Of a stretch of 64,000 nt of DNA, positions 34,024 through 61,807 are shown piece after piece. The stretch is taken from positions 268,811 to 332,810 of the forward strand of contig JBFWWG010000002.1 of NCBI GenBank assembly GCA_050246315.1, written 5' to 3'. Source of the DNA: Nitrospiraceae bacterium (GTDB lineage: Bacteria; Nitrospirota; Nitrospiria; Nitrospirales; Nitrospiraceae). Position 1 is the first letter of the stretch; every line of letters begins with the position of its first letter. The notes below the pieces were generated by a model. It was not told the origin of the DNA and did no database searches. It saw only the letters and a program-made list of their open reading frames with translations. The position numbers and the translations under genes were made by a program.

Positions 34024-34031
34024 CTCCAACC

Positions 34032-40705: not shown

Positions 40706-40829
40706 GTCAGGTCCTTTCGTGAATCAGGAAAAAGAATCGGACTGTCCTCGCTTTCCGCAAGATCCTCCGTTGGGTCCCATCAAAAGCTGATGGTGGCCTC
40801 CTTGCCGGATCGCGGTTTGAACCCGGCCG

Positions 40830-41683: not shown

Positions 41684-42706
41684 TCACTGCACGGACACCA
41701 CTCGTTTATCGAAGAACCGGCGGATGTGGTCCGCGATCACGTCTCCATCTTCCTCCAACGCGAAGTGTCCCGTGTCCAACAGATGGAAGTCGAGGTTCTT
41801 CAGATCCCGCTTATAGGGATGCGCGCCGTCCGCCGGAAAGATCTCATCGTTCTCTCCCCACACGAGCAGCGTCGGGGGCTGATGGTCGCGCAGGTACGCT
41901 TGCCACATAGGATAGAGCGGCGGGTTAGAACCGTAGCTGTAGAACAATTGCAGTTGAATCTCGTCGTTGCCCGGACGATCCAGCAAGTACTGATCTACGA
42001 GCCAGTTATCGGGACTGATCGACTGCACGTTGCGCACCCCGTGGGTGTATTGCCGTTTGGTGGCGCCAATATTGAGGAAGCCCTTCAACGGCTCGGCATT
42101 CGACGCAGTCCGCTGTTTCCAATACGTGCGGAACGGCTTCCAGAACTCTGTGAGTCCTTCTTCATAGGCATTGCCGTTCTGCACGATAAGGGACTCGACT
42201 CGTTCGGGATGGGCGACGGCGAGCCGGAATCCTATCGGCGCCCCGTAATCCATCAAGTAGAGGCTGTACTTCGTGAGCCCGACCGTCTCCGTGAAGTGAT
42301 CGATGATCCTCGCGAGGTTCTCGAAGCTGTAGTCAAATTCATCCACCGTTGGCATGGAGCTGTTGCCATATCCCGGGTAGTCCGGAGCAACCAGGTGAAA
42401 TCGGTCCGACAGAGCGGGAATCAAGTTACGAAACATGTGAGACGAGGTCGGGAATCCGTGGAGCAGCAGAATCGTCGGCGCATCCTCAGGACCTGCCTCA
42501 CGATAGAAGATGTCGAGCCCGTCGACTTTAACGGTTTTGTGGAACGTGGGGTAAGCGGCCTTCACCGAACTTCCTTGGCCCAGAGGCGGTTCTGACTGTG
42601 TAGGTTTCGAGGCGACGGTTCCAACCATGATGGTGGCAATCAGACTAAACGGCACGACGGCCATGATGGGAAGGATCAATTTCAAGATGCGCGTGAGATC
42701 TTTCAT
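41684..42706 (-). CDS. alpha/beta hydrolase (epoxide hydrolase/dehalogenase type) with N-terminal signal or TM
   Basis: HGFP, DYGAP nucleophile elbow, QNGN, TGHFALE. Confidence 0.9.
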
Positions 42707-42743
42707 GCTGGGGCCCTCCGTTCGGTTAGAGTCGTGGGTTGCT

Positions 42744-43871
42744 CTATTCGGCCCAGGGCAGCAGCACGAAGTTGCCTTTCACTTGATTGGTGGCGATGAG
42801 GCGGTGGGCGTCGGTCGCCTGACTGAGCGGAAACGTCCGATCCAGGGCCGGCTTGATCCGCCCGAGCCTAACCTGCTCCAGTCCCCATCTCAGATCTTCA
42901 GGGTCGGCGAATATGGTGCCCCGCATCTGTTTCTGCGTGAAAAAGAACTCCCGCACGTCAAACCTTCCCTCAACACCGCCCATAAAGCCATAGACCACGA
43001 TGGTCCCTAAGGGACGAACGGCTTCGACAGTCTGGGCTAGGTCGCCCCCACCCACGTTGTCAATGGCCACATCAGCGCCTCGTCCTCCGGTCCAATCCTT
43101 CACTCGTTCGACCACGTCTTCTGTTTTCGTGTTGATCACCAGGTCGGCTCCCTGTGCCTTCACGAATTCGCCTTTGTCATCGCTCCGAACCGTTGCGGCC
43201 ACCTTGGCGCCCAACGCTTTGGCAACTTGGATATGCATGTGGCCCGAACCGGACGCCCCCGCCGTGACGAGGACCGTGTCGCCTGCTTTGACTTCGCCGA
43301 CTTGCTTGACGGCACGAACGGAGGTTCCCAACACAACTGGGAGCGTGGCGACTTCGGCCGGAGCCAGTTGCGTCTCGTCCTTCAACACCCATCGAGCCGG
43401 GACCTCCATGTACTGAGCATAGGACCCCCAGACATGCACTCCTGGCACGACAAAGCTGGGGGAGGTGGCGAGGGGCCGATTGGAATCGTCTTCTTCCCGG
43501 AGCGTAAAACCCGCGGCGGGGATGACGCGCTCACCGATTCGCACGCCTGTCACTCCATCACCCAACCCAACAACTTCCCCGACCGCATCAACCCCTAAAA
43601 TGTGCGGGAGTGGGAGATTCGGCATGACCGACCCCTCACGCAGGTAATGATCCAATCGATTCATCCCGGCAGCCAACACCTTGATGAGCACGTAGCCTGG
43701 CTTGGGGCTTGGCGTAGGAATCTCTTCATAACTCAGGACCTCGGGCCCACCGAATCTCCGAAGCATCACGGCTTTCATGCTTTTCGCCGGTCGGCTCCGA
43801 TCGGCATGTTCAGTAGCAGTGATATCCAACGTGAGGATGCTCATGGTCATGCTCCTTTCCCGTCGTTCCAA
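42744..43871 (-). CDS. MDR-family zinc-binding dehydrogenase / quinone oxidoreductase
   Basis: MKAV...GGPEVL, PHILG, GASGSG; start codon uncertain. Confidence 0.9.
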
Positions 43872-43904
43872 AGTGGCTAAGGCGCCCCTGGAGGTAAACT
43901 TCCG

Positions 43905-44273
43905 TTAGGGGTTGTGATAGAAGCGCTCGTGGACGATTTTGCCATCTTGCCATTTCGCGACGACCGCCTGCTCGATACGAACAGGGGTGCCGTCCTTGGC
44001 AACCCAGTCCATCACCACTTCGTAGAACGTCACGTTGTCGCCCGCGCCCTGAGCGGTGACTTCGAACCCTCGCCAGTCCTTCACGGTGCTGAGAAACTGT
44101 CGTTCACGTTCGAGGTTGGCCTGCCGTCCTCTCGTGGGCGGCGCGCTGTTCTCCTGCATCACCACATCTTCGGCATAGAACTCATTGATCGCGTCAAGGA
44201 TGCGCCCGGCTCGGATATAGGCGAAGAGTTCAGGGAGCCTGTGATGGGGGGTGACTACCGTTCCTGCAGTCAT
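43905..44273 (-). CDS. SnoaL-like (NTF2) protein
   Basis: FYAEDVVMQEN...W.DGKIVHERFY; AAAGGAG RBS. Confidence 0.85.
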   Translation of the reverse strand: MTAGTVVTPHHRLPELFAYIRAGRILDAINEFYAEDVVMQENSAPPTRGRQANLERERQFLSTVKDWRGFEVTAQGAGDNVTFYEVVMDWVAKDGTPVRIEQAVVAKWQDGKIVHERFYHNP

Positions 44274-44346
44274 GGCATTTCTCCTTTCAGGTTGCGGATC
44301 AACAGTATGGCTGCCAAGCGCTTCTTGGCGGCGATATCTCCGCTCT

Positions 44347-44482
44347 CACAAGATGTGTGCCGGAGTCGCCGATACAGGAATCTTGAAGAATGTTGGAGGT
44401 TTCGAACGAGAGAGCTAAAACGCCGCCACAACGATAGTTCGTTGCCAACGAAGCCTCGTTGGTCCACGATGAGGAATCGCCC
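44347..44482 (-). promoter_or_regulatory. sigma54-type promoter 1 with three upstream CGA-N4-TCG boxes
   Basis: CGGCACACATCTTGT (44348-62, minus strand); boxes at 44429-44, 44446-61, 44467-82. Confidence 0.65.
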
Positions 44483-44612
44483 TCAACCTGAATAAACAGT
44501 TTCAGTGAAGACCAGCCTGAGGCTTCTCGGACCTCAACGGCTTCTCAGACCTGGGAGCTATCCGAGCGGGAGCCCCAGGGACAGGGCTCTCGACCGCATG
44601 ATGAGCCTTGCC

Positions 44613-45536
44613 CTATGGGCCTGCAAAGGGACCGCGAGTAGTGGGAATGGAGGTATCGAGTGGTGGCCCCAAAAGCGTCTGGTTGAATCCCAGATACAAT
44701 CGATACAGCCCATCTCCCCGTTTCCATTCCTGAGCTGAGCTATCGACAATGAGATAGTAGGTCCCCGGGGCCAACTCAGAGGGAAACAATGCTGTGACCC
44801 CCGCTCGCAGGACATATCCTTGCTGCAATTGAGTTCCATCCGAGGAGAGAAGATAGAGGGCCGGCTGCCAGGCAGATTGGACCAAGCCGACGACTCCCGA
44901 CCACATGGCCCGGTTGGCGGCCACAGCCGCTTCAATTCTGCTACATTCCGTGAGGACGAAGCGGTACATTTGATCCGGGCCGTTCAACCCGTCGGGATGG
45001 CCGTAGTTATCTTTCGCCTGCGCCAATGTCGCCGTTAGCACGACACTGTCCGTGATCCGGTCCGCATGGGCCAGGTCTTCCCCACCGCGGAATTCTGCAC
45101 CAGTCAAGGGTCTGGTCCCACACGTCGCCCAGGTCACGGGACGATCATGTCGGCTAGCAACTGAAGAACAGCCTCCCTCATCGGGACAAGCCATGGTGTC
45201 ACGGTTAGACAGTGGCTGGCGTTCGTATCCGTACCGTGGAGAAACTGGAGCCACGACGTGAGGCAAGGAAGGACGGTCATGGTCCCGCTCTTCTTCTATC
45301 TCCAGCACATTTGCTCCCGCCAGCAGGCAATTCACGAGGGCCGTGAACTCCGCTTCCCCTTCTAAACGGTTCCATGAGCACTGTGCAGATCCCCCCACAC
45401 AGGGGGTCATCGATCGATATTCGACAACATGCACAAACGGCTTGGGCCTGATCTCGCAACCCAGGATCGCGAGACAGCCAAGAAGTACTCCGGCCGAGAC
45501 CACTTTTGAACTGAACACGTTCAGCCCCTTGATCAC
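44613..45536 (-). CDS. Cys-rich lipoprotein with PPC-like C-terminal domain
   Basis: Lipobox ILGC; GPD..Y.F...PGTYYLIVDS...G.Y.L pattern; GTGA overlap with the upstream gene. Confidence 0.65.
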   Translation of the reverse strand: MIKGLNVFSSKVVSAGVLLGCLAILGCEIRPKPFVHVVEYRSMTPCVGGSAQCSWNRLEGEAEFTALVNCLLAGANVLEIEEERDHDRPSLPHVVAPVSPRYGYERQPLSNRDTMACPDEGGCSSVASRHDRPVTWATCGTRPLTGAEFRGGEDLAHADRITDSVVLTATLAQAKDNYGHPDGLNGPDQMYRFVLTECSRIEAAVAANRAMWSGVVGLVQSAWQPALYLLSSDGTQLQQGYVLRAGVTALFPSELAPGTYYLIVDSSAQEWKRGDGLYRLYLGFNQTLLGPPLDTSIPTTRGPFAGP

Positions 45537-47293
45537 GTTTCCCGATCAAGCCCGACGAGATGAAACCGCCCGGTCATAGGATCGAATCCGAGATAGACGA
45601 TCATCCGCGGACTCCATTGCTTCCCACCGTCGTAACTGGTCTGGATATGCAGGGTTGTGACAGGAACATCTGTCGAGAGTTCCTGTTGGTCTGCCATGTG
45701 AATTGTTCTAGGAATCGTGATCCTCGACTGTGTCACGATTTGTTGTGGAATCACTTCCGAATCGACACCGAATCTCACACGCCGCTTCAGGGTATAGCGA
45801 TAGGTTGCAGTAGGGCCCGGGGCATAACCCCGTGACAGCGCCAGGTTCTCGAAGATCAGGAATGGCTCTCGCCCGTCAAGTTCCACCAGCCGAAAATGAT
45901 CGAGGGGATTGACGACCTTGAAATAATAGCGACCGATTTTGTCGCGACGCGCTTTCAAGACCGCCGCCACGTACCGTCCTGCTCGCGGATCAGTGAACCC
46001 GCCGGTATGCACGATCGTGTCGATGTCATCATCGGTGAACGAAGTGACGATCTTGGCTCCCCAATAGGCGTCTCGCAGCGTGGTCCGGAGAAATGCCGGA
46101 TTCGGGTACGTTGGGCGCCATCGCTCCGGATCGAAATAGTCCGCCTCAAAGTACCCGACGGCCGGGAACTCCATGCGGAGAGGAACCTCCCATGGCTTCA
46201 CGTAAAACCCTGCCTCTATCATCGACCGGCCGACGGTTCCGAAGTCGAGAAAATACTCGTTCCCAAATCGAGAGAGTTGCGGATCAGCATTATCCGCTCC
46301 CAACGTCGAGGAGAAGTCGATGAGGTAATGCGACAGATACTTCGCTTCGGGATCGTACATGTCGAGCGCGTTGGCCGCCTTGGTGTCGGTATGGTTCAGA
46401 AAGGCCGCTAGAATCCGAAGTCCTCGCAATTCACGCCTGTTTTCATGACGGATGCGGTCGTTCGGATCGTCAGACCGTTGCCCGACATAGAGAAACGGAC
46501 CTTTGGGAATTCCAGGCAGGAACTTGCTGGCCATTGCCCGAATCGTTCCATCGGGCCGATGGGGGACGCGCTCTAAAATGGCTTTGATGTCATCATCGGT
46601 CATGGGCCGTGGGACATGGTATCGGCCACGGAACTTGGCCGTTGGGCCGACCACGATTCGGCCGGGATCGACGTCGACAAGATAATGTTCCGGGACATGG
46701 TATCCGGCCGCGTACAGGAAGCGCGAAGAGATCATTTCCGATGCGGTCGTCATTTCAGGGTGTAACGGCGGGTCGAATTTCAAGAGATACACGTCGTTCT
46801 TTTCATCGCGAATGACGAAGCCCGGCGTGGAGCCCAGACTTTGTTTCGCGCTGATCGCCGTCCAGACCCCTCTGGGACTCGGCCCTTGCCCGATCCCTGC
46901 GCCACGAGACAAGTCGGCTTGCGAGAGTCGTGCAACGGCGTGGCGGTTTGTGAACCAGGTGGAATCGGGAACCTCGTCGAAGGTGTTCACGTTCTGAGCC
47001 TCCACCGGACCGGCGAGGCCGACCCATGTTCCAACCGTTCGGACAGAACGACCGAGGTTGAAGAGTTGCCCAATGCGGTAGAAGATCATCTTGTCGGTGC
47101 CATCCCAGAGAGCCCACTGGCCATCCATTTCCTCCTGCGGTTCAGGAATAGGTCTTCGGTCGTCTACTCGCTGGAAGTGAGGCCGTTCCAGAGCCGGCGC
47201 ACTGTAGCAACCAGCCGTCGCCGTGAGGAGAAGCGCCCAAACTGTCAGCACGCGTGAGTGTCGGATTACCCTGGCGGATGGTCGTATGTTCAT
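45533..47293 (-). CDS. putative lipoprotein kinase (HipA/PI4K-like atypical kinase fold)
   Basis: Lipobox TAGC29; LGSTPG loop, K172, E186, H301TDTKAAN308, ID326F. Confidence 0.7.
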   Translation of the reverse strand: MNIRPSARVIRHSRVLTVWALLLTATAGCYSAPALERPHFQRVDDRRPIPEPQEEMDGQWALWDGTDKMIFYRIGQLFNLGRSVRTVGTWVGLAGPVEAQNVNTFDEVPDSTWFTNRHAVARLSQADLSRGAGIGQGPSPRGVWTAISAKQSLGSTPGFVIRDEKNDVYLLKFDPPLHPEMTTASEMISSRFLYAAGYHVPEHYLVDVDPGRIVVGPTAKFRGRYHVPRPMTDDDIKAILERVPHRPDGTIRAMASKFLPGIPKGPFLYVGQRSDDPNDRIRHENRRELRGLRILAAFLNHTDTKAANALDMYDPEAKYLSHYLIDFSSTLGADNADPQLSRFGNEYFLDFGTVGRSMIEAGFYVKPWEVPLRMEFPAVGYFEADYFDPERWRPTYPNPAFLRTTLRDAYWGAKIVTSFTDDDIDTIVHTGGFTDPRAGRYVAAVLKARRDKIGRYYFKVVNPLDHFRLVELDGREPFLIFENLALSRGYAPGPTATYRYTLKRRVRFGVDSEVIPQQIVTQSRITIPRTIHMADQQELSTDVPVTTLHIQTSYDGGKQWSPRMIVYLGFDPMTGRFHLVGLDRET

Positions 47294-47305
47294 GGGAGCA
47301 CCTGA

Positions 47306-48682
47306 TCAAAAACCCAGCGTGGCGGCTCGTCGCCTGATGAAATCCAGGTCTCCTCGGATCAGGGTCAAGACCCCGTCCTCGCTCCCCGCCACTTGAATCC
47401 GGAAGCTGAACTTCCTGTTGGAGACGAAACGCAATCCTGCCCCGGCGGAGTACCGGAATTGTTTCAGCCCGATGTCTCTGTAGTTGTTGAACACCTGCCC
47501 TTCGTCGAGAAAGATATCCCCTTCGACATCCTGCCAGACGGGAAAGCGCCATTCGGCGTTGAAGAGCAGGGCGCCTTCATCTTGCCACCGCCCGCGGTCG
47601 AAACCGCGCAAACCGTTGTTGAGATCCAAAAGGTTCAGCTCGTAAAAGGGGATCGACCCGTTACCCAGGCTGTCCTGTTTCGCGAGATACCCCCTCAGCA
47701 GAAGCACTCGGTTGCCATGGAAGACAGGGATGTACCGTTGGACCTCCAAGCGGTAGCCGATGTAGCGAAACTGATCGCGATTCACCTGGTCGGTGTAGGT
47801 GAACGATCCCTCTGCGAACCAGCCCATGGTCGGCCGGAAGGGATTGTCCCGTGAGTCGTACCGAAGGCTGGGTTCGATGGCTAACGCTGTCATGGAACTG
47901 TTGTTGCCTGCGACGGTCGCCGGCGTGGCCGGCAGCCGGCTGGATGGTTTGGCATCGGCGATCAACAGCCGTCCGGTGAGCGCTGCACTGAGATCACCAG
48001 CCAGCCGACGACCCAGTGTGGTATCCCAGGCCAGTTCTTTCAGCTCGAAATTCGTCTCGTCCTGCTCCCGCGCCCGATTCCCACCGGGATAGAAATGGCT
48101 TTCGTCGAAATTCAACCAGAACGTGTTCGTCTCAAAAGACCAGGCAGAACCGAGGAGGGACGGGTCGCGAAAAGATAGCTCGCCGACTTGATTGTCCCGG
48201 GTTGCCACGAGGTAGGACAGCCGCGCTTCTTTGCCCTTTCTGAAGACATTGTTGTTGAACGCGGTGAACCCAATCCCGCTGCTGAGGGTGCCGCCTACCG
48301 ATAATCTTGGATAGATTCCTGCAGTGCGCTCGTCGTTCAGAAAGACATCCAAGGCGCGATTGAGCAGATCGTGCCGCTCGTACACGATCGCGAGCTGCTT
48401 GAATGGATACGTGAACCCCGCCCAGGCATATTCCGGCACCGCCAGCAGCCGGTTGGCCCATGTATTTTCTTCATCCTCCGGCGGCTGGCTCGTGGGCCGG
48501 TCGTCGCGCGGTGGCGTGGGTTCTTCCCGCGGCGATTCGGCGGACGCGGCTTGGCGAGGGGCTTCCGGTGGTGGGACGACAGGGGGCTGCTTGGTCGCAC
48601 AGGCCATCTGGAGAAGCAGCGTGAGGACCAATAGAGTCCAAACGAGCAGGCAGGTGACGGAGCGTGTCGCACCAACCGTCAT
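47306..48682 (-). CDS. Omp85 (BamA/TamA-family) barrel protein, predicted lipoprotein
   Basis: YDSRDN, LRGF loop-6 motif, AEWRFP, GAGLRF; QMAC lipobox-like site. Confidence 0.85.
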   Translation of the reverse strand: MTVGATRSVTCLLVWTLLVLTLLLQMACATKQPPVVPPPEAPRQAASAESPREEPTPPRDDRPTSQPPEDEENTWANRLLAVPEYAWAGFTYPFKQLAIVYERHDLLNRALDVFLNDERTAGIYPRLSVGGTLSSGIGFTAFNNNVFRKGKEARLSYLVATRDNQVGELSFRDPSLLGSAWSFETNTFWLNFDESHFYPGGNRAREQDETNFELKELAWDTTLGRRLAGDLSAALTGRLLIADAKPSSRLPATPATVAGNNSSMTALAIEPSLRYDSRDNPFRPTMGWFAEGSFTYTDQVNRDQFRYIGYRLEVQRYIPVFHGNRVLLLRGYLAKQDSLGNGSIPFYELNLLDLNNGLRGFDRGRWQDEGALLFNAEWRFPVWQDVEGDIFLDEGQVFNNYRDIGLKQFRYSAGAGLRFVSNRKFSFRIQVAGSEDGVLTLIRGDLDFIRRRAATLGF

Positions 48683-48737
48683 GGCGTTGGACTTTCCTTC
48701 TACTCGCCGGCTTCCCTAAGAACTGCCGGGCTTCGAC

Positions 48738-49733
48738 TCAAAACCGATATTCGACGGTGAGGCCCAATCCTCCCCGTGCGTCCGGCACAAAAGGCAGGAC
48801 GCTCCAGCCGCGGAGTGCGTCCGGATGCTGATGCCGCCAGCTCAGGGCCTTCCCGATGGCGAAGCCGAGTGCCGCGCCGGCAAAGACATCGGAGGCGAAA
48901 TGCTCGTTCAGATAAATCCGCGACAGGGAAATTAACGCCGCGCCGGTGTAGACGAGGAAGGGGATCGGTTGCGGGTACGCGTCTGCGAAGACCGCGGCGA
49001 CGGCAAAGGTGCGGGCTGCATGGCTCGACGGGAACGACTTGTCGAATCCCTCGAACGGGTCGTACGATTGTGTGCCTTCCCCCGCATCTGGCCGGGCCCG
49101 GCCCACGGCAAACTTGGTCAGGCCGACCAAGGGTTCGGTGAACAGTTGCGCTTCTAGACTGACCAGGGCCGTCCGCGTGAGTTTGTTCCCCGCTTCGTGT
49201 TCTCGCAAGAGCCACCCCGCGCCGATCAAGCCGACATTTGCCATCAACACGTTCCTCCCGAATCCGATCTCCTCCAAGGTGTCCGCGATCTCGTCGTTCG
49301 TGTCGGTGCGATTCTCTTGAAAGGCCCGTTGAATCGATTTGTCTACAACCATCAATCCACCGATCGTGAGTCCGACTCCCCCGGCAACGAGGGCACTTTT
49401 CCGGTCCATTCTCAGAGGCGAAGTGATTACATATTCGATATCGTTCAGGACCTCCTGCCCAACTGAATGCAACGTTGCGAACGCTTCGCCCCCACTCACC
49501 CGTTCCGGTGTCGGTCGCGGCCCGATCAGTTCCTCCCCTCGATGCTCTCTCCTCGGACTCGAGTCACCCGCCTCCTGCCCTCCGGCAGTGGTACAGCACA
49601 GCCAAGAGAACGACACCACCAGCAGCAGGACGACAACTGCGCCTTGCCTTGCCATAGTTACCCATGCCATCCCCGAAATGAGACACACGCTCGTGGGTCT
49701 CGGGACCACGCGCCGATGCGAACACCGAATCAA
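48738..49733 (-). CDS. PAP2-family phosphatase
   Basis: K(x6)RP, PSSH, SR(x5)H(x3)D; start codon uncertain. Confidence 0.85.
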   Translation of the reverse strand: MIRCSHRRVVPRPTSVCLISGMAWVTMARQGAVVVLLLVVSFSWLCCTTAGGQEAGDSSPRREHRGEELIGPRPTPERVSGGEAFATLHSVGQEVLNDIEYVITSPLRMDRKSALVAGGVGLTIGGLMVVDKSIQRAFQENRTDTNDEIADTLEEIGFGRNVLMANVGLIGAGWLLREHEAGNKLTRTALVSLEAQLFTEPLVGLTKFAVGRARPDAGEGTQSYDPFEGFDKSFPSSHAARTFAVAAVFADAYPQPIPFLVYTGAALISLSRIYLNEHFASDVFAGAALGFAIGKALSWRHQHPDALRGWSVLPFVPDARGGLGLTVEYRF

Positions 49734-49854
49734 TCAGCGATGGCCTGGCGAAGAGACCATGATGATGCTTCGTCGCCGAGAGGACTTGGCCAGGCAAGCT
49801 CCGGGTATCCTCCCCGAGTGCGTCAGAAAGATCTTGCGGTTCACGATTCGCCAT

Positions 49855-50103
49855 TCAGGTTTTCTTCCTGTGCCATCGGGTGATCAGACATCGTTCATAC
49901 TCCCTCGGATTCCGGAAACGATGCGTGACAGGATTCTGGCGCGCTCCCCAGGATGCGACACCAGTTTCTTCGATCAACACCCCGGTCGTCCGTGGATCCA
50001 GATGGAGGACTTCCTTGACCATAGCCGTTGACCGCGCGACCAAGGCATTCTTCTGCTCCTGCGTGACAGATCCGTCTGTGAGCTGGATGGTAACGATCAA
50101 CAT
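49855..50103 (-). CDS. 4-oxalocrotonate tautomerase-like protein lacking Pro1
   Basis: VTxEQKxxLV...VLIEE...WG; begins ML instead of MP; AGGAGG RBS. Confidence 0.65.
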   Translation of the reverse strand: MLIVTIQLTDGSVTQEQKNALVARSTAMVKEVLHLDPRTTGVLIEETGVASWGARQNPVTHRFRNPREYERCLITRWHRKKT

Positions 50104-50113
50104 GAGGACCCTC

Positions 50114-50479
50114 CTACTGTGACGATGTTGAATTCGCCGAAGCCGCCACAAGCCCTTTCATGTGGGGGTGAAACTCACAGAAGTACGGATACGTTCCGCC
50201 TTCTTCGATGATCAGCTCCCACGACTCTCCTTCCGCGAGCGTTTTCGGTGCCCACAAGCCCTGCTCCGCCGTGACGGTGTGGGGAACAATGTCGCGATTC
50301 ACCCATCGGATCGTATCGCCGGGAGCCACGACCGCCTGTTGAGGCATGAAACTGAACGCGTGAATTTCGATCAGATGCCGACCGGAGCGGGAGGCCATGC
50401 CCTGCTCCGAGGCAGCGCCGGCCTCCCCGATGGCAACCAAGCTCAGGACCGCGAGAACGATCACTCGAGACATGGTCAC
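50114..50479 (-). CDS. plastocyanin/amicyanin-like cupredoxin
   Basis: Signal peptide; PHTV and CEFHPHM type-1 Cu ligands. Confidence 0.9.
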   Translation of the reverse strand: MTMSRVIVLAVLSLVAIGEAGAASEQGMASRSGRHLIEIHAFSFMPQQAVVAPGDTIRWVNRDIVPHTVTAEQGLWAPKTLAEGESWELIIEEGGTYPYFCEFHPHMKGLVAASANSTSSQ

Positions 50480-50491
50480 ATCCTTCCCCGA

Positions 50492-51043
50492 TTACATGAC
50501 CTTCTGATTCATCGACGACGCATGACCTTCGTGCACCTTGAAGGTTTGGAGCGCCGACGTGAGGAGCGCCTTCAGCTCGGCATTCTTCGCATTGGGAATG
50601 AAGGCGTTCTCGACCGTGTTGTTCACGAACTTGTGGTATTCGAGTTCGTTGGCCGCGTAGCGCTTGTCGAACGCCTCGCCGCGGAGCTGGGAAAGTTCGT
50701 TTCGAATCTCACCCGCCCGCTTCGACAACTGCTGACTCGTCGGGTTGTCCTGCGGCGTAATCTGGAGCTTGTTGACCAAGGCGAGAGCCTTGTTGTTCAC
50801 CGCCGTATGGTCACGGACCATCAGTTCCGCAAATTGCCGGACCTGCGGGTTTTCTGAAATCGCCAAGGCCAGGTGGGCGTAGCGAATGTCGATGTTGCCC
50901 GCCGTGTAGGCGATGTGGGCGATCTCCAGATCGTTCGGCGCCTTGTCCGGCTCTGCCGTCGCCGGGTTGCTGGCCGTCACACAGCCCACCAGCACGGCGC
51001 TCGCCAGAGTGAGACAGCCTAAAGACTTCGTGATCGTTCTCAT
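50492..51043 (-). CDS. DUF4142 (ferritin-like) lipoprotein
   Basis: Lipobox LVGC; VRQFAELMVRDH, FDxxY..NE..YH. Confidence 0.85.
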   Translation of the reverse strand: MRTITKSLGCLTLASAVLVGCVTASNPATAEPDKAPNDLEIAHIAYTAGNIDIRYAHLALAISENPQVRQFAELMVRDHTAVNNKALALVNKLQITPQDNPTSQQLSKRAGEIRNELSQLRGEAFDKRYAANELEYHKFVNNTVENAFIPNAKNAELKALLTSALQTFKVHEGHASSMNQKVM

Positions 51044-51180
51044 GATGCCACTCCTTTCTAGAATGAAGTGATTGAGTTGCTCTCGGCCGTCACCATCGAC
51101 GTCTGAGAGAGTCCTGGTGCCCGTCGGCACCTTTCATCAAGCAAGCATCATGGCTTGCCGTACCGTCCCTGGTAGGTGGA

Positions 51181-51582
51181 CTACGCCCATTGCGGAACGG
51201 CTTGCTGTTTGGAAGCGGCGACTGCCCCGATTAACATGGCTATCGCCAAACCAAGATGGAGCCAGCGGTCGGCTTCGTTGATGTGGACCAACCCCAACAG
51301 CATGTTGCCGCTCGTCATGAACCCGAGCAGCGCTATGCCGGAGTATGCGGCCGTGATGGCCTTCAACGCCGTGCGTTCCCTGCCTTCCATCGCCAGTCCG
51401 CCAAAGAGAAAGGCGGAACCGGTCAACAGATGCACGAGGTTGTGCAGGACGTTCGTCTCAAAGAAACCGTCCGCTGAGACAATCGGGTTCGGGAAGAACC
51501 CGAGGAATCCAACCAGAACGAAGATCGAACCGAATGCGAGACAGATGTTCTTGCTCGTCAGCATGACTATCACCTCCTTCAA
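51181..51582 (-). CDS. DUF4383 membrane protein
   Basis: HNLVHLLTG and AD.WLHL in a 4-TM protein. Confidence 0.85.
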   Translation of the reverse strand: MKEVIVMLTSKNICLAFGSIFVLVGFLGFFPNPIVSADGFFETNVLHNLVHLLTGSAFLFGGLAMEGRERTALKAITAAYSGIALLGFMTSGNMLLGLVHINEADRWLHLGLAIAMLIGAVAASKQQAVPQWA

Positions 51583-51589
51583 TTACTAT

Positions 51590-52216
51590 TCAGGATGCCG
51601 GCGACTTCTTTTGCAGCACCGGATAGCCGAATGAATAAATCCACTTGTCCGCATCGACCGCGTTGCGCGGAGCAAGCTCCCTTGCCGGCGTGTGACAGGG
51701 AATGCAATCCGTCTTGTAGTTTTTTGAGACCGTGTGCCTGGGATCGTCGGCATTGAAGAGCGACCAGGCCCACCCATCCCCCCACAGGCTGGATTCCTTG
51801 TAGCGACCCTGGGTGTCCCTGACCAACACGAACCATCCTTTGATGGTCGTCGCGTGGCCGACTGCCGGCCCGGTCGTCATCGCCATGGTCTTGGCGTCCA
51901 GGAGTTCTTTGACCAGCACCGCCCCATCAGGAAATCGCCTATACTGTTGGTAGTAGGCGATCGTCTCCGGCTGGGTGTAGACCACGTGATACTCGTGGAC
52001 GCCGGGCCCCATCTTTTCCAACTTCTCTCCCGTGTGCGCATGGGTCCACGTTCCGAGCGTGGGCCACTCGGTGTAGTTCTCGGGGACTCGAATCGCGCCG
52101 GTTGCCGGTTCGACATTTGGAGCAAAGGGCTTCTCGCCTTCGCCCATCATCGTCCCCATCAAAAAAGGGATGGCAACTAACGCCAACATCACCATGTAGA
52201 ACGTCTGCTTCTTCAT
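51590..52216 (-). CDS. cytochrome P460-family protein
   Basis: Signal peptide; FPDGAVLVKE; C-terminal CIPCH. Confidence 0.85.
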   Translation of the reverse strand: MKKQTFYMVMLALVAIPFLMGTMMGEGEKPFAPNVEPATGAIRVPENYTEWPTLGTWTHAHTGEKLEKMGPGVHEYHVVYTQPETIAYYQQYRRFPDGAVLVKELLDAKTMAMTTGPAVGHATTIKGWFVLVRDTQGRYKESSLWGDGWAWSLFNADDPRHTVSKNYKTDCIPCHTPARELAPRNAVDADKWIYSFGYPVLQKKSPAS

Positions 52217-52296
52217 ATCGCTCTTCCTTCCTTGTGCTGCTGAACCGGGGTAGGCGGCCCGCCGCTGCTCATGCGGCGGGCCTTTCCCAATGGTCC

Positions 52297-52758
52297 TCAC
52301 AGATCACCGGGAGCCTTGTCCTTAATGGCGGACCAGTTTTTCTCCGCCTTCTTGATGTTCCCTGGGATATCTTTTTCCCACTTGACTTGGATCCCCTTGT
52401 CCAGGTTCAAGTAGAGCGTGCCGTCGACGATCTTCCAGACCTCCGGATCGGCCACGAACTTCTTCGCCACCGACACGCCATAGGCGCAGTATCCGCCGTA
52501 CGCCGGCAGATACTTCGTCGGGTTCGCCACGAACAGCTTCTTGTGTTCTTCCGAGGTGAAGGCGTAGGTCACGCCGTCGTGATCGGCGACGTGGTAGCCT
52601 GACCCTCGCATTGCCTTCCCATCGGTAAAGTACGCCACGACGTCATAGCCGGCGGCGCCCGGCGTGCTATGGGTGTAATCCAGCGCGAATGCCGGCGCCG
52701 CGACGGCCGTGGCCACCAGTGCCACGATGCCCAGGAAGCATTGCTTCATCGAGTTCAT
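52297..52758 (-). CDS. exported YHS-domain protein
   Basis: GYDVVAYF, P.KYLPAYGGYCAYG, IVDG.LYLN. Confidence 0.9.
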   Translation of the reverse strand: MNSMKQCFLGIVALVATAVAAPAFALDYTHSTPGAAGYDVVAYFTDGKAMRGSGYHVADHDGVTYAFTSEEHKKLFVANPTKYLPAYGGYCAYGVSVAKKFVADPEVWKIVDGTLYLNLDKGIQVKWEKDIPGNIKKAEKNWSAIKDKAPGDL

Positions 52759-52801
52759 GAGAAACCTCCTTGTGAGATGAAAGGGTTAACGCACTGACAC
52801 A

Positions 52802-53353
52802 CTACGCGGCGCGGGTTTCCCCGACGTCCACGACCGGGAAATCCACCTCTGTCCCGGCGACGAGGTTGAAGTAGTTGGTGAACACATTGATGGCGATGTT
52901 CGCAATCACCTCCACGATCTCTCCGTCCGACAATCCTGCAGCGCGGACCTGTGCCAGATCCGCATCTGACACCTCGCCACGAGACGTCAGGACGCGGTTG
53001 ACGAATGTCAGGATCGCTTGTGTCTGTGGGTTTTCGGACTTCCCGTTGAGATTGCGGCCCAATTCCCGCGTATCGAGACCGGCTTGTTTCGCGATGGCCG
53101 TATGGGCCGACGCGCAGTATCCGCACCGGTTGGCCCCGGCGACGGCAAGCGCAATTTGTTCCCGCAACGCCGTGGACAGCTTCCCGGACCCAAGCGACTT
53201 GGTGAAGTTGAGATAGCCCCCGAGCACAGACGGGGCATGGGCCAAAGTCTTGAAGAGGTTGGGCACGACTCCGAATTGGCGCTGAATCGCGGTCAGCAAT
53301 TCAGCAGCCTTCGGGTGTGCGGCCCCTGGCTCCAGCGGTTGAATGCGTGGCAT
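52802..53353 (-). CDS. AhpD/CMD-family peroxidase-related protein
   Basis: VPNLF, CGYCASAH, TNYFN...VDFP. Confidence 0.9.
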   Translation of the reverse strand: MPRIQPLEPGAAHPKAAELLTAIQRQFGVVPNLFKTLAHAPSVLGGYLNFTKSLGSGKLSTALREQIALAVAGANRCGYCASAHTAIAKQAGLDTRELGRNLNGKSENPQTQAILTFVNRVLTSRGEVSDADLAQVRAAGLSDGEIVEVIANIAINVFTNYFNLVAGTEVDFPVVDVGETRAA

Positions 53354-53458
53354 GTCGGTCCTCCTGCGAGTTAAAGGTTATGAGGTCATCGCGTCCGCCG
53401 ATCGATGGATGAGTGCTCCCACCGAATCCTCGAACGGCCCGCTCGTGGTCACCACTAT

Positions 53459-53596
53459 GTCAAGCCGCGTGCCACGTTGACGTTTGATACGAACGCGTTG
53501 AAATTACGATGAAGAGCCGCTGGTTGACCTCTTCATGAGCGATCACGACAATTCGTGACTAACAAGGAATCGTTGTGTCGCCACGAGTTCTCGTTT
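53459..53596 (-). promoter_or_regulatory. sigma54-type promoter 2 with three upstream boxes
   Basis: TGGCACGCGGCTTGAC (53459-74, minus strand); boxes at 53543-58, 53560-75, 53581-96. Confidence 0.7.
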
Positions 53597-53673
53597 AAGT
53601 TAGTCAGCGATTCGACCACGGCCTAGCGAAGCAAGTCTGTGGAGCCAGCGAACTCGCCGAGTTATTGGTGAAC

Positions 53674-54336
53674 ATGAACCGCGGAGATCCTTCTCGTTCT
53701 CTGGGGGAATTGTCTGAAGCTGAGTGGCGGCACCACTGTCCCTCGTTCTCTGTGGTGACGTTGGGCGACAAGGCGGTCATTCATCGCCAAGGAGACGTAA
53801 GCGATGTCGCGTTCATCATTGCGAGGGGGCGGGTGAAGCTCTCACGGCTGAATCGCGATGGAGATCAGTTCACGATGGCCGTGTTAACCGAGGGACAGAT
53901 GTTCGGCGCTCCACTGGCTGACCAATCGAGCACCACACTTACGGACACCGCAGAAGCCAAAGGTCGCACCGCCCTCTATCGGGTGCAGGTGAAGGAGCTG
54001 AGGGAACTATTGAAGTCTCAGCCGCTCCTGGCGTGGGACACCATTGAAAGCCTTTCCAAAGGACAGCGGCTCCTCGAACGGAAACTGGAGCTGATGATGT
54101 TCCATGACGCCCGATCGAGACTCGCGGAGACATTGCGCGACTTGGCCGGCACCCAGGGGGGGCATTGTCAGCATGGGTTCGAGCTGGACATCAAGCTGAC
54201 CCAGCAAGAACTCGCGGACCTCGTCGGAGCGACCAGGCCTGTCGTCAGTACGATCCTCAACGAATTCAAAGGTCGAGGTATCCTCGACTACCACCGCACG
54301 CTGATTTGCATTCAGAACCTCAGGGCTCTCGAATAG
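53674..54336 (+). CDS. Crp/Fnr-family transcriptional regulator
   Basis: cNMP-like beta-roll (GRVKL, G..FG) and LTQQELADLVGATR HTH. Confidence 0.9.
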   Translation: MNRGDPSRSLGELSEAEWRHHCPSFSVVTLGDKAVIHRQGDVSDVAFIIARGRVKLSRLNRDGDQFTMAVLTEGQMFGAPLADQSSTTLTDTAEAKGRTALYRVQVKELRELLKSQPLLAWDTIESLSKGQRLLERKLELMMFHDARSRLAETLRDLAGTQGGHCQHGFELDIKLTQQELADLVGATRPVVSTILNEFKGRGILDYHRTLICIQNLRALE

Positions 54337-54628
54337 TCTTCCGGTAACCATCCACATGCAGCGTGAGCGGACGTGACTAGGGGAACCACATGTGTAAGGA
54401 TCGGTCACGTACGGCGACTCATAATCTGTCCATTGTGGCGGATTAACTGGCAGTTCTGAATCGACACCGAAGCAAGAGGTGATGCGAGCTCTCATGCGGC
54501 CAAACGGTGAATCGATTTTGAGGGACTGTTATCCAGCGAACAGACAGATTTCCTGACTCGCGACATGCTCCCTTGCGAAAAGACGACAAAGCTTTGCCCA
54601 GGCTAACGGGTTCAGTGGGAATCGACTT

Positions 54629-55702
54629 ATGTCAACCGACCACGCAGCCTATGCAGAGACGCCCCGGGTCATGCCTTGGGACGAGCGAGAACGCCTTCTC
54701 CAATCGGAGCGGGGGTCCGAGGACAGTTTTGGTAACCTCGTCGGACGGAGTGCCGCCTTGCGTGCGATGGTCCAGCAAATTGACCTCGTCGCGCCCACGG
54801 ATGCCACCGTCCTCATTCTTGGCGAATCCGGAACCGGCAAGGAATTGGTGGCGCGCGAAATTCACGAACGAAGCCGCCGTCGAAGCCGGGCACTCGTCCG
54901 CGTGAATTGTGCCTCGATTCCGAGAGAACTTTACGAAAGCGAATTTTTCGGTCACGTGAAAGGGGCCTTCACCGGAGCCTTGAAAGATCGAGCCGGCCGA
55001 TTTGAGTCGGCCAATGGCGGCACACTGTTCCTCGACGAAGTCGGAGAGATCCCGTTGGAACTGCAGAGCAAGCTATTGCGTGTGCTGCAGGAAGGGGAAT
55101 ACGAACGGGTGGGAGAGGAAACAACCCGAACGGTCAATGTCCGGATCGTCGCTGCCACCAATCGAGACCTCACCAGGGATGTCCAGGCGGGACGATTCCG
55201 ACAAGACCTCTATTATCGGCTGAACGTCTATCCCATTCCTGTCGTGCCTCTCCGCCATCGGAAGGAAGACATTCCATTGTTGGCCGCGTACTTCGTCGAG
55301 CAGGCTGCCGAACGGCTCCATTGTCCCCGACCCGATATGGCGGAGGCTCAGGTAAGGCAGCTACAATTCTATGATTGGCCTGGGAATGTGCGAGAGCTCC
55401 AGAACGTGATTGAGCGAGCCGTCATTGCGTCACAAGGTCGTGCGCTTGAATTCGAATTGCCTCACGGAACCCATGAAGAACAGCCGGTGACGCGCCCGAT
55501 ACGCACTGCCGCACGATCAAGCGAAGGAGAGGTACTGACCGAAGCCGAGATGCGGCAATGGGAACGCGACAACTTGTTGGCCGCGTTGCATCTGAGTCAT
55601 TGGCGCATTTACGGACCGGGCGGCGCAGCAGAGCGATTGGGAGTCAAGCCCACAACCTTGGTGTCACGCATCAAGAAGCTGGGAATCAAGAAACCGGATT
55701 AA
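54629..55702 (+). CDS. sigma54-dependent activator (AAA+ plus Fis HTH) without a sensory domain
   Basis: [34 protein letters not shown] domain starts about 33 aa from the N-terminus. Confidence 0.92.
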
Positions 55703-55783
55703 CACATCTGCGCTCGTGGATCACATCTTCCACAGGAATCGGGACGCTCTGCCTCCGAGTGACCGCTCTTTTTCTTTCCTCGT

Positions 55784-55987
55784 TCAGGCTGCCGCAAGAT
55801 CAGAATGCCGGGGGCTGGTCTTGATGATGTAAGTCAAGCGGTCCCGCCGTTGTCCGTTGGAAAGAATGACAGGATCCAGGATGTCTCCACACGACACGCA
55901 TCGCCAGGCCCGACCGCCAGTTTCCGATCCAAGCAAGTCCACGATGTAGTACCCAACCATCAGTCCATGACAACGACCACATTCCAT
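55784..55987 (-). CDS. small zinc-finger protein
   Basis: CGRCHGLMV...WRCVSCGDILDPVI; AGGAGG RBS. Confidence 0.7.
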   Translation of the reverse strand: MECGRCHGLMVGYYIVDLLGSETGGRAWRCVSCGDILDPVILSNGQRRDRLTYIIKTSPRHSDLAAA

Positions 55988-56048
55988 GTTGCCCTCCTGT
56001 GTTTCTCATCACCATGACACCCATGCCGATTGCATGCGAATCAACCGA

Positions 56049-56888
56049 TCACTCTCGAATCGCTCTCGTGCGTGCTTGCGCGTAGGCATTCCGAGCAGCG
56101 CTATAGAGATCCAGCGTGCTTTGTTCGAGACCGTCCAACAGTTCCAAGTTCCGAGACCGGTCATTGACCGTCTCACCCGCCCGCGAGACGATCTGAGGTG
56201 CGAGGGGCAGGAACAGTGTCAGAGGATCAAAGACGAGATCGCCTAGGAATCCGACTCCATCCCGAACGGTTGTTGGGGACAGCAACGGTAACACCAGATA
56301 GGGACCAGGCTCGACGCCGTAGACGGCAAGTGTCTGCCCAGCATCTTCACCCGCCGGTGAGCCGAGCCCGAACCATTGGTCAGCAACATCGAACAGGCCG
56401 GCCACTCCGATCGTGCTATTGATGGCGAACCGACCGAGTTCCCTTCCGGTCGCTTGCCATTTCCCCTGAAAGAGATTATTGAGCACCCGCGGCACGAAGC
56501 GAACGTTGTGAAATGCCCGCCCAATTGCGCGTTCAACCGGGTCTGGAACGATCCAGTCATAACCGGTCGCAAGTGGTTTGATGGCATATCGGTCGACTGA
56601 CTGATTGAACGCAAACATGGTCGAATTGAATCCTTCCCACGGATCGTCAATGGACTCCAGACTGTTCTCGCTGAACGGATCGGCGGCATGATTGCTATCG
56701 ACCTCGTGTGACGCGCAACACTCGTTCCCTTCAACCTCCATCTCGGCTGCCATGACGTCGAGATGGCAACTCCCCAGCGAGCCAGTCAGGAGTACGAGAA
56801 GGCAAGCGGCTCGAAGGCACACAGTGGTCAGATGGTGCGAAGGTACGACCACGTGGGTCGTAGAGTGAAGAGCGTTCACGTGCAGCAT
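56049..56888 (-). CDS. mlaA: VacJ/MlaA-family lipoprotein
   Basis: DPWEGFN..MF.FN, INSTIG..GLFD, ED.GQTL, GPYLVLP. Confidence 0.9.
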   Translation of the reverse strand: MLHVNALHSTTHVVVPSHHLTTVCLRAACLLVLLTGSLGSCHLDVMAAEMEVEGNECCASHEVDSNHAADPFSENSLESIDDPWEGFNSTMFAFNQSVDRYAIKPLATGYDWIVPDPVERAIGRAFHNVRFVPRVLNNLFQGKWQATGRELGRFAINSTIGVAGLFDVADQWFGLGSPAGEDAGQTLAVYGVEPGPYLVLPLLSPTTVRDGVGFLGDLVFDPLTLFLPLAPQIVSRAGETVNDRSRNLELLDGLEQSTLDLYSAARNAYAQARTRAIRE

Positions 56889-56917
56889 CCTTTCGATCCT
56901 CTTCCCTTAACGTTCCA

Positions 56918-58291
56918 TTAGGCACTGGCGGCCAACACGTGATTGCTCTCCGACCTGCCGGCCGCTGAGACGTGCTTCGTCCGCGGTACCATAGTCGATT
57001 TGTTGACTGCCTCGCCGAAGCGCCGGCTCGCCTTGAGACTCAACACCACCATGACGACCATCGCCCCAATGGTGATCAGGCTCAAGTACTGTGCAGAAAG
57101 CCCGACGGATCCCAGCGCCAGAACCGCGAGGATACTGAGCCCCTTGGCGCCGCGTTGCACGAAGATGGAAATAAACGCGCGGGCCTTATATTTCTCGTCA
57201 GCCGATGTCGCGACATACAACGATTCTCGACCCGTCTGCTGGATCGAATAGTTCAGGCCGTTATCCAGAATGACCAAGAGGCTGACCGCGGCCAACGTCG
57301 GCATTGCGAGAAACCCCAGAGAGCCTGCCGTGATGGCCACAGGAAGGGCCAAGAGCGTCACGCGCGGGCCAAACCGCTTCATCATCATGCCGACCAGGAA
57401 CAACTGTGCGAAGACGGAGAGCAGATTCGAGTAGAGATAAATGTCCGTGAGGAACGCTTGCGTGGCTCGCACACCGGACATGCCCTGAGCCGTGAGCTTG
57501 AACTGGTAGTCCACCAGTTGTGAAGCAATTTCATAGCACCCCATGATGCCGGCTATGCTCACGAGGTACGGTGACCGCACGACTAACCTCGCTCCTTCGA
57601 TCATGTCAGGCATTCTCCCGAGGGCACGTTCCTGATCGTTCGGTACAGTGTGAAGGAGCGGGACCGGTTTAAAAATCGAGGATCTCAGAACCAGGGATTC
57701 TGTGACTGCAGTAGCCAGAAGGACGCCCCCCATGAGTCCGGCGGCAATCACGAGCAGTCCTTGAGTTCCCACGCTCGAAAGAAGAAGCTTCGCAAGGGCG
57801 CTTCCTGCCCAACCGCCGAGGACTCCGCCCGCTCCGATCGGACCGAAGAAGCGCTGCGCATCCGGTCCGCGAGCCAGATCCGTCAAGTAGGCCCAAAACG
57901 CCGTCGCCATGACTGTGACTTCGAGATCGCCCAGGAAATAGAGGGTCCAGATTGGTAGAGACCGTTCGTCATCCTGAAGGAGAAAGGCAAGCCCGAGGAA
58001 CGCCACAGCGAAGGCCCCGCTTAGCACTGAGAGGAAGCAGCGCCTCGACAACCTGTTGTACAGGCCTGTAAAGATGCCGACTGCCATCCCGGCGAGGAGC
58101 ACAGTGGCCAACTTGGCATAGAGCTCCACCTGAGCCCCATAATGCTCGACAAACAAACCACTCTTCAGGGGCTTGAGAATTTGAAAGACCGCAATTACGA
58201 GAAAGAAAAACGAGAAGAGGAGTCCCGCAATGTACAGATCGTGCGTTGGGCTGTGCTTCCATATCCGACGATTCATGATCGCTCCGTTCAT
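56918..58291 (-). CDS. Npt1/Npt2 (TLC, ATP/ADP translocase-like) nucleotide transporter
   Basis: About 12 TM; ILKPLK..LF, FW...D, RFFG, E.LY...EKYKARAFI..FV.R. Confidence 0.75.
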   Translation of the reverse strand: MNGAIMNRRIWKHSPTHDLYIAGLLFSFFFLVIAVFQILKPLKSGLFVEHYGAQVELYAKLATVLLAGMAVGIFTGLYNRLSRRCFLSVLSGAFAVAFLGLAFLLQDDERSLPIWTLYFLGDLEVTVMATAFWAYLTDLARGPDAQRFFGPIGAGGVLGGWAGSALAKLLLSSVGTQGLLVIAAGLMGGVLLATAVTESLVLRSSIFKPVPLLHTVPNDQERALGRMPDMIEGARLVVRSPYLVSIAGIMGCYEIASQLVDYQFKLTAQGMSGVRATQAFLTDIYLYSNLLSVFAQLFLVGMMMKRFGPRVTLLALPVAITAGSLGFLAMPTLAAVSLLVILDNGLNYSIQQTGRESLYVATSADEKYKARAFISIFVQRGAKGLSILAVLALGSVGLSAQYLSLITIGAMVVMVVLSLKASRRFGEAVNKSTMVPRTKHVSAAGRSESNHVLAASA

Positions 58292-58333
58292 CTCACAAGT
58301 GACCCGTTATTAATCCGATGGTCCCTTGCCTAG

Positions 58334-58469
58334 TCCAATCATCGTGCCACGCTCCGCTCGTGAATAAGATCAGAATTCTCTGAGACTTGTACCGTTCCTT
58401 TTCTTGCGGTCGTTCGTCGAGTTTTCGTCGCACCACGAAGACTCGCTGTGCAGAAACGATTAGTTGTGA
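58334..58469 (-). promoter_or_regulatory. sigma54-type promoter 3 with three upstream boxes
   Basis: TGGCACGATGATTGGA (58334-49, minus strand); boxes at 58415-30, 58433-48, 58454-69. Confidence 0.7.
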
Positions 58470-61797: not shown

Positions 61798-61807
61798 CGT
61801 ATTCGGC

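Follow-up and report, generated by a model that had tools for sequence, protein, structure and literature searches.

The stretch analysed here, 64 kb of a Nitrospiraceae contig with about 59% G+C (the window, and the only source of the window-wide counts below), carries three runs of minus-strand genes and, among them, a plus-strand pair encoding a Crp/Fnr-family regulator and a sigma-54 activator of 357 amino acids. Each minus-strand run is preceded by a sequence of the sigma-54 promoter type, GGCAC-N5-TTG (P1, P2 and P3), and each of these by three copies of the dyad CGA-N4-TCG at nearly fixed distances. We compared the window with related loci (L001 and so on), namely the best 80 of at least 575 candidates, with one genome per species scanned. 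The activator's nearest relatives sit in Nitrospira genomes: L001-L003 are the Nitrospira orthologues of the short activator, and L012 and L005 share contigs with L001 and L002, respectively. The genes concerned are:

40079-44273, minus strand: P1 operon, five genes encoding SnoaL-like, Zn-ADH/quinone oxidoreductase-like, alpha/beta hydrolase, PNPOx-like and CMD/AhpD-like proteins
44613-53353, minus strand: P2 operon, eleven genes, syntenic in L001/L012 and L002/L005
53665-54336, plus strand: Crp/Fnr-family regulator with a cNMP-binding domain and a helix-turn-helix (HTH), upstream of the activator and between P2 and P3
54629-55702, plus strand: sigma-54 activator, 357 amino acids, with an AAA+ domain containing GAFTGA, a lid domain and a Fis-type HTH, and no N-terminal sensor domain
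56049-58291, minus strand: P3 operon, two genes encoding a TLC/MFS-like transporter and an MlaA lipoprotein

A preliminary description of the window had noted GGCAC-N5-TTG upstream of each minus-strand operon. We located the three sites on the minus strand at 44349-44361 (P1), 53461-53473 (P2) and 58336-58348 (P3); with their flanks they read CGGCACACATCTTGT, TGGCACGCGGCTTGA and TGGCACGATGATTGG, respectively. Each points at the first gene of its run, and a Shine-Dalgarno sequence stands before each start codon. The promoters and predicted transcription starts are:

44348-44362, minus strand: P1, sigma-54-type promoter CGGCAC-acatc-TTGT; GGCAC and TTG kept in L012, L005 and L004
near 44336, minus strand: predicted P1 start, about 63 nucleotides ahead of the ATG at 44273
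53460-53474, minus strand: P2, sigma-54-type promoter TGGCAC-gcggc-TTGA; kept in L001-L003
near 53448, minus strand: predicted P2 start, about 95 nucleotides ahead of the ATG at 53353
58335-58349, minus strand: P3, sigma-54-type promoter TGGCAC-gatga-TTGG; kept in L001, L002 and L003
near 58323, minus strand: predicted P3 start

The GGCAC and TTGA of P2 are invariant in L001-L003, and the N5 spacer varies at one base. Two other sigma-54-like matches, at 39652 and 59088 on the plus strand, were taken as chance because both lack a box array and a co-directional downstream gene.

The dyads upstream of the promoters, hereafter the boxes, form three arrays of three (positions are given without strand):

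44432-44441: P1 box 1, proximal, exact; centre 76 bp from the -24 GG; kept in orthologues
44449-44458: P1 box 2, exact; 17 bp from box 1; kept in orthologues
44470-44479: P1 box 3, the distal one; minus-strand reading CGAttccTCA, one mismatch; 21 bp beyond box 2
53546-53555: P2 box 1, proximal, exact; centre 78 bp from the GG; top matrix match
53563-53572: P2 box 2; minus-strand reading CGAttccTTG, one mismatch; imperfect form kept in L001-L003
53584-53593: P2 box 3, the distal one; exact; 21 bp beyond box 2
58418-58427: P3 box 1, proximal, exact; centre 75 bp from the GG
58436-58445: P3 box 2, exact; 18 bp from box 1
58457-58466: P3 box 3, the distal one; minus-strand reading CAActaaTCG, one mismatch; 21 bp beyond box 2

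The 64 kb hold 29 exact CGA-N4-TCG sequences, six of them in the three upstream regions (44432, 44449, 53546, 53584, 58418 and 58436). The remaining three of the nine boxes have one mismatch each, in line with the earlier remark that a few were imperfect. Every distance given in the preliminary description was reproduced by a strict array search, which demanded three CGA-N4-TCG boxes with at most one mismatch each and two in total, at spacings of 21 and then 17/18 bp. Measured from the first G of GGCAC, the centre of the proximal box lies at 76 bp in P1, 78 bp in P2 and 75 bp in P3, the second box follows after 17, 17 and 18 bp, and the third after 21 bp in all three. Exactly these three arrays were returned for the window, against a mean of 0.055 and a maximum of 2 in 200 first-order Markov shuffles of it. 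Box pairs at spacings of 17, 18, 21, 38 or 39 bp (at most one mismatch in total) were found nowhere else in the window. An independent weight matrix, trained on 38 boxes from 18 other loci with the window excluded, placed 53546, 44432 and 53584 as the top three window positions and eight of the nine boxes among the top 24, with box 44470 outside the top 40. A single strong box at 344-353 and weaker matrix matches at 12057, 17204 and 45736 were set aside as isolated, without a partner box at the family spacing.

Such dyads could fold into short hairpins, and a weak terminator-like site was called at 44421-44433, so the arrays might be read as RNA hairpins, terminators of the upstream operon, non-functional repeats or plain chance. 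However, three arrays stand against 0.055 expected, their sequence, spacing and promoter distance are conserved across phyla, and the boxes precede the predicted transcription starts; we give this explanation next to no credence. An Rfam scan of the window returned one tRNA only, with no match in the leader regions, and a terminator and promoter scan gave fewer matches than shuffled sequence and is informative only for a sigma-70-like site at 53524-53552, described below.

Alignment with L001-L003 showed that the P2 region keeps all three boxes, including the imperfect middle one, together with the promoter and the block ATTTCAACGYGTTCG between them. This intervening element is listed as:

53490-53504, minus strand: conserved block ATTTCAACGCGTTCG between the boxes and P2; kept in L001-L003, with a similar element at the same place in many loci

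The block is loosely like an IHF site, the consensus of which is WATCAANNNNTTR, and it may serve as one. The P1 and P3 alignments are more diverged, and their conserved islands are the two proximal boxes and GGCAC...TTG, a pattern that reads as a typical phylogenetic footprint. Conservation of the motif at orthologous loci thus extends to every box of P2 and to the two proximal boxes of P1 and P3, and stops short of the distal boxes of P1 and P3. In many Nitrospirales loci (L006-L017), a conserved leader aataccacgaaaacatgaatg lies directly downstream of the promoter, and the very A+T-rich stretch from boxes to promoter contains a conserved AAAACAAnnnnTTATGA, a candidate for an IHF-like site or intrinsically bent DNA.

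The same arrangement recurs across phyla. Over the 80 loci, exact boxes are about six times denser upstream of activator genes than elsewhere (2.64 versus 0.43 per kb). Strict triple arrays occur in 22 of the loci; at a distance of 74-79 bp, 18 of the 22 are accompanied by a promoter-like site. A relaxed search yielded 33 promoter-plus-box composites in 30 loci, spanning Nitrospirota, Planctomycetota, Nitrospinota, Verrucomicrobiota, Deltaproteobacteria-labelled genomes and others. The family layout consists of ACGA-N4-TCGT boxes spaced by 21 and 17/18 bp, at 74-80 bp from the -24 GG, and the Planctomycetota spacings are as in Nitrospirota (18 and 21 bp in L024; 17 and 21 bp in L072). At least two exact boxes lie upstream in 23 of 30 cases in which the activator has the recognition helix K[PA]TTLxSR[IVLM]KK, compared with 5 of 46 without it (Fisher p = 5.8e-9, uncorrected for phylogeny). 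Subfamilies with altered helices, such as those of L026 and L060, show altered dyads. Because the box arrays track the recognition helix and not the Crp-like gene, we regard the boxes, on good though indirect evidence, as the operator of this activator family.

The main competitor for the boxes would be the Crp/Fnr-like regulator at 53665-54336, whose gene adjoins P2 and for which the 5-N4-5 form of the dyad, presumably like that of FNR-family sites, could be a fitting operator. Its homologue is paired with the short activator in L001-L003 only, that is, in 3 of 80 loci, whereas arrays occur in 30 of 80, mostly beside a GAF activator without a Crp gene nearby. We rejected the Crp-like protein as the box reader because of this distribution, and regard such an assignment as extremely improbable. 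The preliminary description had assigned the boxes to the 54629-55702 activator as its enhancer sites. The tracking of the family recognition helix argues for this assignment, with the amendment that the motif is not private to one protein and serves a broad family of GAF activators.

Two variations on the layout were seen within the family. The Nitrospina-related loci L026 (9304-9336) and L060 (9387-9418) have ACGG-N4-CCGT dyads about 21 bp apart, L026 also having one ACGA-N4-TCGT, and their recognition helices are slightly different (TLATR), which may point to a switch in specificity among family members. The Verrucomicrobiota-labelled loci L066 (6388-6507) and L071 (11291-11411) each have a further triple array on the plus strand, downstream of the activator gene and accompanied by the promoter GGCACAAGGATTGA; the regulon there would thus have more than one target.

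We consider it probable, at roughly three chances in four, that P1, P2 and P3 are sigma-54 promoters driven by triple-dyad enhancers that the activator family reads. Several observations weigh against this reading. GGCAC-N5-TTG alone is not significant in the window (5 matches against 2.05 expected, a number reached by 5 of 100 shuffles), and the enrichment of single boxes is modest (5 matrix matches of at least 12 bits against 1.7 expected). The distal box of P1 is absent in L012, L005 and L004, and that of P3 in L001 and L002. Family scans found no rpoN gene within the window. The 80 loci, a selection from a larger set of candidates, come from related species, so that the counts and the Fisher test rest on non-independent samples. 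P1 may answer to a paralogue outside the window, because the P1 of relatives adjoins its own GAF paralogue with a near-identical DNA-binding tail. Finally, the three promoters lack C at -12 (GT, GA and GG), as the preliminary description had stated: tested against the sigma-54 consensus of GG at -24 and GC at -12 separated by ten bases, the -24 element (TGGCAC or CGGCAC) and the TTG are correctly spaced, and the C of the GC doublet is missing in all three. The absence extends to the whole family. When the search left the position of the consensus C open to any base, 36 composites gave TTGT in 15 cases, TTGA in 9, TTGG in 7, CTGT in 3, and TTGC and CTGC in one each, so that C stands at -12 in 2 of 36 promoters and another base in 34. 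The canonical CTGCA is found at E. coli norV, and the proven E. coli promoter of pspA, TTGGCAC-gcaaa-TTGT, is likewise without the C. Since 34 of 36 family promoters and pspA share this departure, we regard the missing C as a family trait and not as a novelty of kind.

The predicted reader of the boxes in the window has an intact catalytic core. Its sigma-54 interaction domain matched PF00158 with E = 8.4e-73 and retains Walker A, GAFTGA and Walker B (DEVGE). HTH_8 was matched with E = 8.3e-5 and 22.7 bits (cut-off 22) when the last 68 residues were scanned alone, and was unlisted in the whole-protein scan. The C terminus carries the family recognition helix, fitting K[PA]TTLxSR[IVLM]KK, and no second enhancer-binding protein was found within the window. 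In the long members of the family, the GAF domain has a motif C-x2-C-x(4-9)-C-x(4-7)-C-x-H near its start (55 of 73 long activators). Alignment of 50 such domains showed three Cys and the His to be invariant and the fourth Cys to be present in at least 90%. A structural model of one paralogue GAF domain (predicted local distance difference test score, pLDDT, 91.7) placed the motif in the loop joining strands one and two of a standard GAF fold, and matched the generic GAF folds of PtsP, cAMP-binding Lcd1 and free methionine-sulfoxide reductase. The window activator fits the family by its helix and its box array and departs from it in the GAF domain with C-x2-C-x5-C-x5-C-x-H, which is absent. 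Only about 36 residues precede the AAA+ domain, and in the alignment they hold a remnant of the GAF-AAA+ linker helix, from which we conclude that the short activator derives from a GAF form by truncation. By these sequence features, it is a natural GAF-less paralogue of the four-cysteine GAF-AAA+-HTH family.

A protein that lacks its sensor domain and whose N-terminal 36 residues are poorly conserved relative to L001 could also be a decaying, inactive remnant, with the promoters silent or served by other activators. However, the catalytic motifs are all intact, L001-L003 retain the 357-358-residue form, at 73% identity, together with the Crp-like gene, and 13 further protein clusters of the best 120 matches contain this form. 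Decay is therefore very unlikely, and a functional, GAF-less activator is the preferred reading. We expect the short activator to be active when present because it lacks the sensory GAF domain.

Comparison with characterised systems places the family within a known kind of regulator and shows differences from each system compared. The top NCBIfam match of the window activator is NorR, the nitric-oxide-sensing GAF-AAA+-HTH activator of norVW in E. coli, to which it is 45% identical over the AAA+ and C-terminal parts. NorR membership was rejected, with 375.2 bits against a cut-off of 476 and boxes that also differ. NorR is reported to rely on three tandem dyads as enhancer sites, each of them essential and all located upstream of a divergent sigma-54 promoter (PMC2831303), and its GAF domain to repress the AAA+ domain (PMC2941729). 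The location of enhancer sites within the regulator's own upstream region is a further likeness. Read directly from the MG1655 sequence, the three NorR sites are GTCA-N3-TGAC, with centres 21 and 24 bp apart and the proximal one 62 bp from the GG. In contrast, the window has even 12-bp dyads, ACGA-N4-TCGT, instead of the odd 11-bp dyads of NorR (GT-N7-AC), spacings of 21 plus 17/18 bp instead of 21 plus 24 bp, and a distance to the GG of 75-78 bp instead of 62 bp. The recognition helices differ as well. The window activator has no GAF domain, and the GAF domain of the paralogue does not align with that of NorR by BLASTP, carrying the four-cysteine insertion where NorR shows a gap.

PexR of Myxococcus xanthus, an H2O2-sensing GAF-AAA+-HTH activator of ahpC and katB, is a second relative in design. 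As described in PMC12754779, it is transcribed divergently from peroxide-defence genes including ahpD, three tandem dyad repeats upstream of its sigma-54 promoter are enough for binding, and the protein is a dimer that forms higher oligomers. The same paper states that the repeats overlap a housekeeping promoter, so that PexR both represses and activates, and that PexR without its GAF domain is constitutively active (PMC12754779). PexR-type boxes, CACCG-N6-CGGTG, gave scattered matches and no array at the enhancer regions of the window or the 80 loci. By its published description, PexR has the metal ligands H102, H120, C122 and D140, a pattern that appears to differ from the invariant C-x2-C-x5-C-x5-C-x-H of the family. 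Some overlap of the family with PexR homologues of Nitrospirota and Planctomycetota (tables S5 and S6 of PMC12754779) may exist.

The short activator also resembles PspF, the phage-shock activator of E. coli, which is naturally sensor-less (325 versus 357 residues), 48% identical over the AAA+ domain and encoded divergently from its target, the pspA promoter, which also has TTGT. The scores of the short activator fall short of the cut-offs of both PspF models (278.6 against 443.55 bits and 229.7 against 529 bits), and the enhancer sites differ. PspF is restrained in trans by PspA. No PspA family member was found by Pfam among the scanned open reading frames (ORFs) of the window, and a Crp/Fnr-like gene precedes the activator instead. 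Our search, directed at open-access full texts, turned up work on NorR, PexR and OrpR and general sigma-54 surveys, and nothing that describes the box, the four-cysteine GAF activators or the regulon. In the passages covered, PMC12316311 makes no mention of Nitrospira and PMC6606698 mentions only sigma-54 regulators of nxr genes. The novelty claimed for regulon and motif thus stands as far as this search goes, and needs to be narrowed in that three-site, GAF-type sigma-54 enhancers are already a known kind.

The synteny of P1 raises the question of which family member serves it. In L012/L001 and L005/L002, the gene of a GAF paralogue of 561-567 residues directly separates the P1-type array from the end of the P2 operon. 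The corresponding interval spans 383 bp in the window (44276-44659) against 2,419 bp in L012 (9180-11599), so that the paralogue gene of about 1.7 kb, which presumably encodes the cognate activator of P1, is missing there, and the window keeps the enhancer boxes and the promoter beside the site of the absent gene. The HTH and DNA-binding tail of the paralogue is nearly identical to that of the short activator, which suggests that the short activator could now serve P1. The family may instead have two inputs in this organism, with P2 and P3 under the GAF-less activator and P1 mainly under a GAF paralogue elsewhere in the genome, the two cross-talking through the shared box. The position of the paralogue beside the P1-type arrays of the relatives and its nearly identical HTH speak for such a division, as does the L004 genome, which has the GAF form and appears to hold a 358-residue form too (P0024). 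However, the paralogue is absent from the syntenic place and, within the 64 kb, no enhancer-binding companion of the 54629-55702 protein was detected. We regard the two-input arrangement as possible but rather unlikely, and are similarly doubtful that a GAF copy is encoded outside the window. The preliminary description had linked about 19 genes into one response; the operons comprise 18 (5, 11 and 2), and the extension of a common response to P1 is plausible rather than established, because it depends on the supposed link of P1 to the 54629 activator.

The plus-strand pair also offers a route for control of the activator itself. A sequence resembling a housekeeping promoter lies in front of the Crp-like gene:

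53524-53552, plus strand: sigma-70-like TTGACC-17-GACAAT, a consensus match only; overlaps P2 box 1; weakly kept in L001-L003

It is a weak candidate for the promoter of the Crp-like/activator pair. Relative to the Crp-like gene, the P2 boxes are situated 70-120 bp upstream, and because the sigma-70-like site overlaps the proximal box, autoregulation, as with PexR at ahpC, is plausible. The gap between the Crp-like gene and the activator (54336-54629) measures 293 bp, compared with about 139 bp in L001, and contains the inverted repeat CGTGAC...GTCACG.

On the reading that the family drives P1-P3 through its triple dyads, the mechanism may be pictured by analogy with NorR and PexR. Each dyad would bind one activator dimer through the C-terminal Fis-type HTH, with its helix KPTTLxSR[I/M]KK, and three adjacent dimers would nucleate the AAA+ hexamer. 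The hexamer would loop the DNA to the closed complex of sigma-54 polymerase about 75-78 bp downstream, and ATP hydrolysis would open the promoter. If the GAF-less activator is active whenever it is made, control would shift to its synthesis, its level probably being set by the Crp/Fnr-like gene in front and by its own binding over the divergent P2 region. Alternatively, a partner might act in trans. The Crp-like gene, the constant companion of the short form, would be the obvious candidate for signal input.

The target genes give some indication of the signal. In the P1 operon, the top NCBIfam match of the Zn-ADH protein is PIG3-type quinone oxidoreductase, under the cut-off. The P2 operon encodes an AhpD-like CMD 'peroxidase-related enzyme', a YHS-like protein, cytochrome P460, DUF4383 and DUF4142 proteins, a cupredoxin, a small tautomerase-like ORF, a PAP2 protein, an Omp85-family protein and two proteins without a family match (586 and 307 residues). 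The P3 operon transporter is syntenic in L001 and L002, and MlaA is not. In other phyla, the divergent operons encode AhpD-like, SnoaL-like, Zn-ADH, alpha/beta hydrolase, isochorismatase, PNPOx-like, thioredoxin, DoxX and tautomerase proteins. The AhpD-like, SnoaL-like, quinone-reductase-like, hydrolase, cytochrome P460, cupredoxin and envelope targets suggest a response to redox, oxidant or electrophile stress, and our guess is that the signal is of this nature.

Further features of the operons and their surroundings were recorded. The last two genes of the P2 operon, at 44613-45536 (307 residues) and 45533-47293 (586 residues), match no Pfam or NCBIfam family; they are 61-80% identical in tblastx to genes at the same place in L012 and L005, beside the Omp85 and PAP2 genes. 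The MlaA gene (56049-56888) is without a counterpart in L001 and L002, in which an unrelated ORF of 180 residues follows the transporter gene. A tRNA gene (39192-39264, plus strand) lies just past the P1 operon. Most of the first 36 kb has a G+C of about 0.58-0.63, which drops somewhat from about 36 kb on (0.53-0.60 over about 36000-60000). Two plus-strand ORFs, 32084-33946 (Helicase_C and DSHCT) and 33822-35096 (DEAD), overlap and present helicase parts in an unusual order; they could be two genes, or the outcome of a frameshift or of a wrongly called start. On the minus strand at 60664-63278, genes for a PHO4 phosphate-transporter-family protein, a radical-SAM/DUF3641 protein and an ArsR-type regulator are clustered, a grouping that we presume to be arsenic-related.

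As a tentative proposal, for which we would claim less than even odds, the family forms a stress circuit in at least five phyla, in which the four-cysteine GAF domain, possibly holding a metal or an Fe-S cluster, senses oxidants or electrophiles, and in this genome, where the neighbouring GAF copy has been lost, the GAF-less copy may be the sole driver of all three operons. In one Nitrospira lineage, this copy together with a Crp/Fnr-type regulator would have taken over genes for the envelope, cytochrome P460 and copper proteins. If this is true, a sensor-gated switch became an expression-gated cascade, and the GAF-less paralogue with its Crp-like partner is a natural experiment in rewired signal input. 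With this family, the group of three-site enhancers represented by NorR and PexR gains a third type of box and a different kind of sensor domain. Its fixed spacing of 21 plus 17/18 bp bears on how three dimers build a hexamer, and its near-universal non-C at -12 bears on how firmly the closed complex is held. In soils, waters and treatment plants, nitrite is oxidised mainly by Nitrospira, and the regulation of their stress genes is almost uncharted; the analysis yields a testable regulon of 18 genes with a defined operator and a named activator. Planctomycetota (anammox relatives among them), Nitrospinota, Verrucomicrobiota and other groups share the operator and its geometry, so that a single binding experiment would annotate many genomes.

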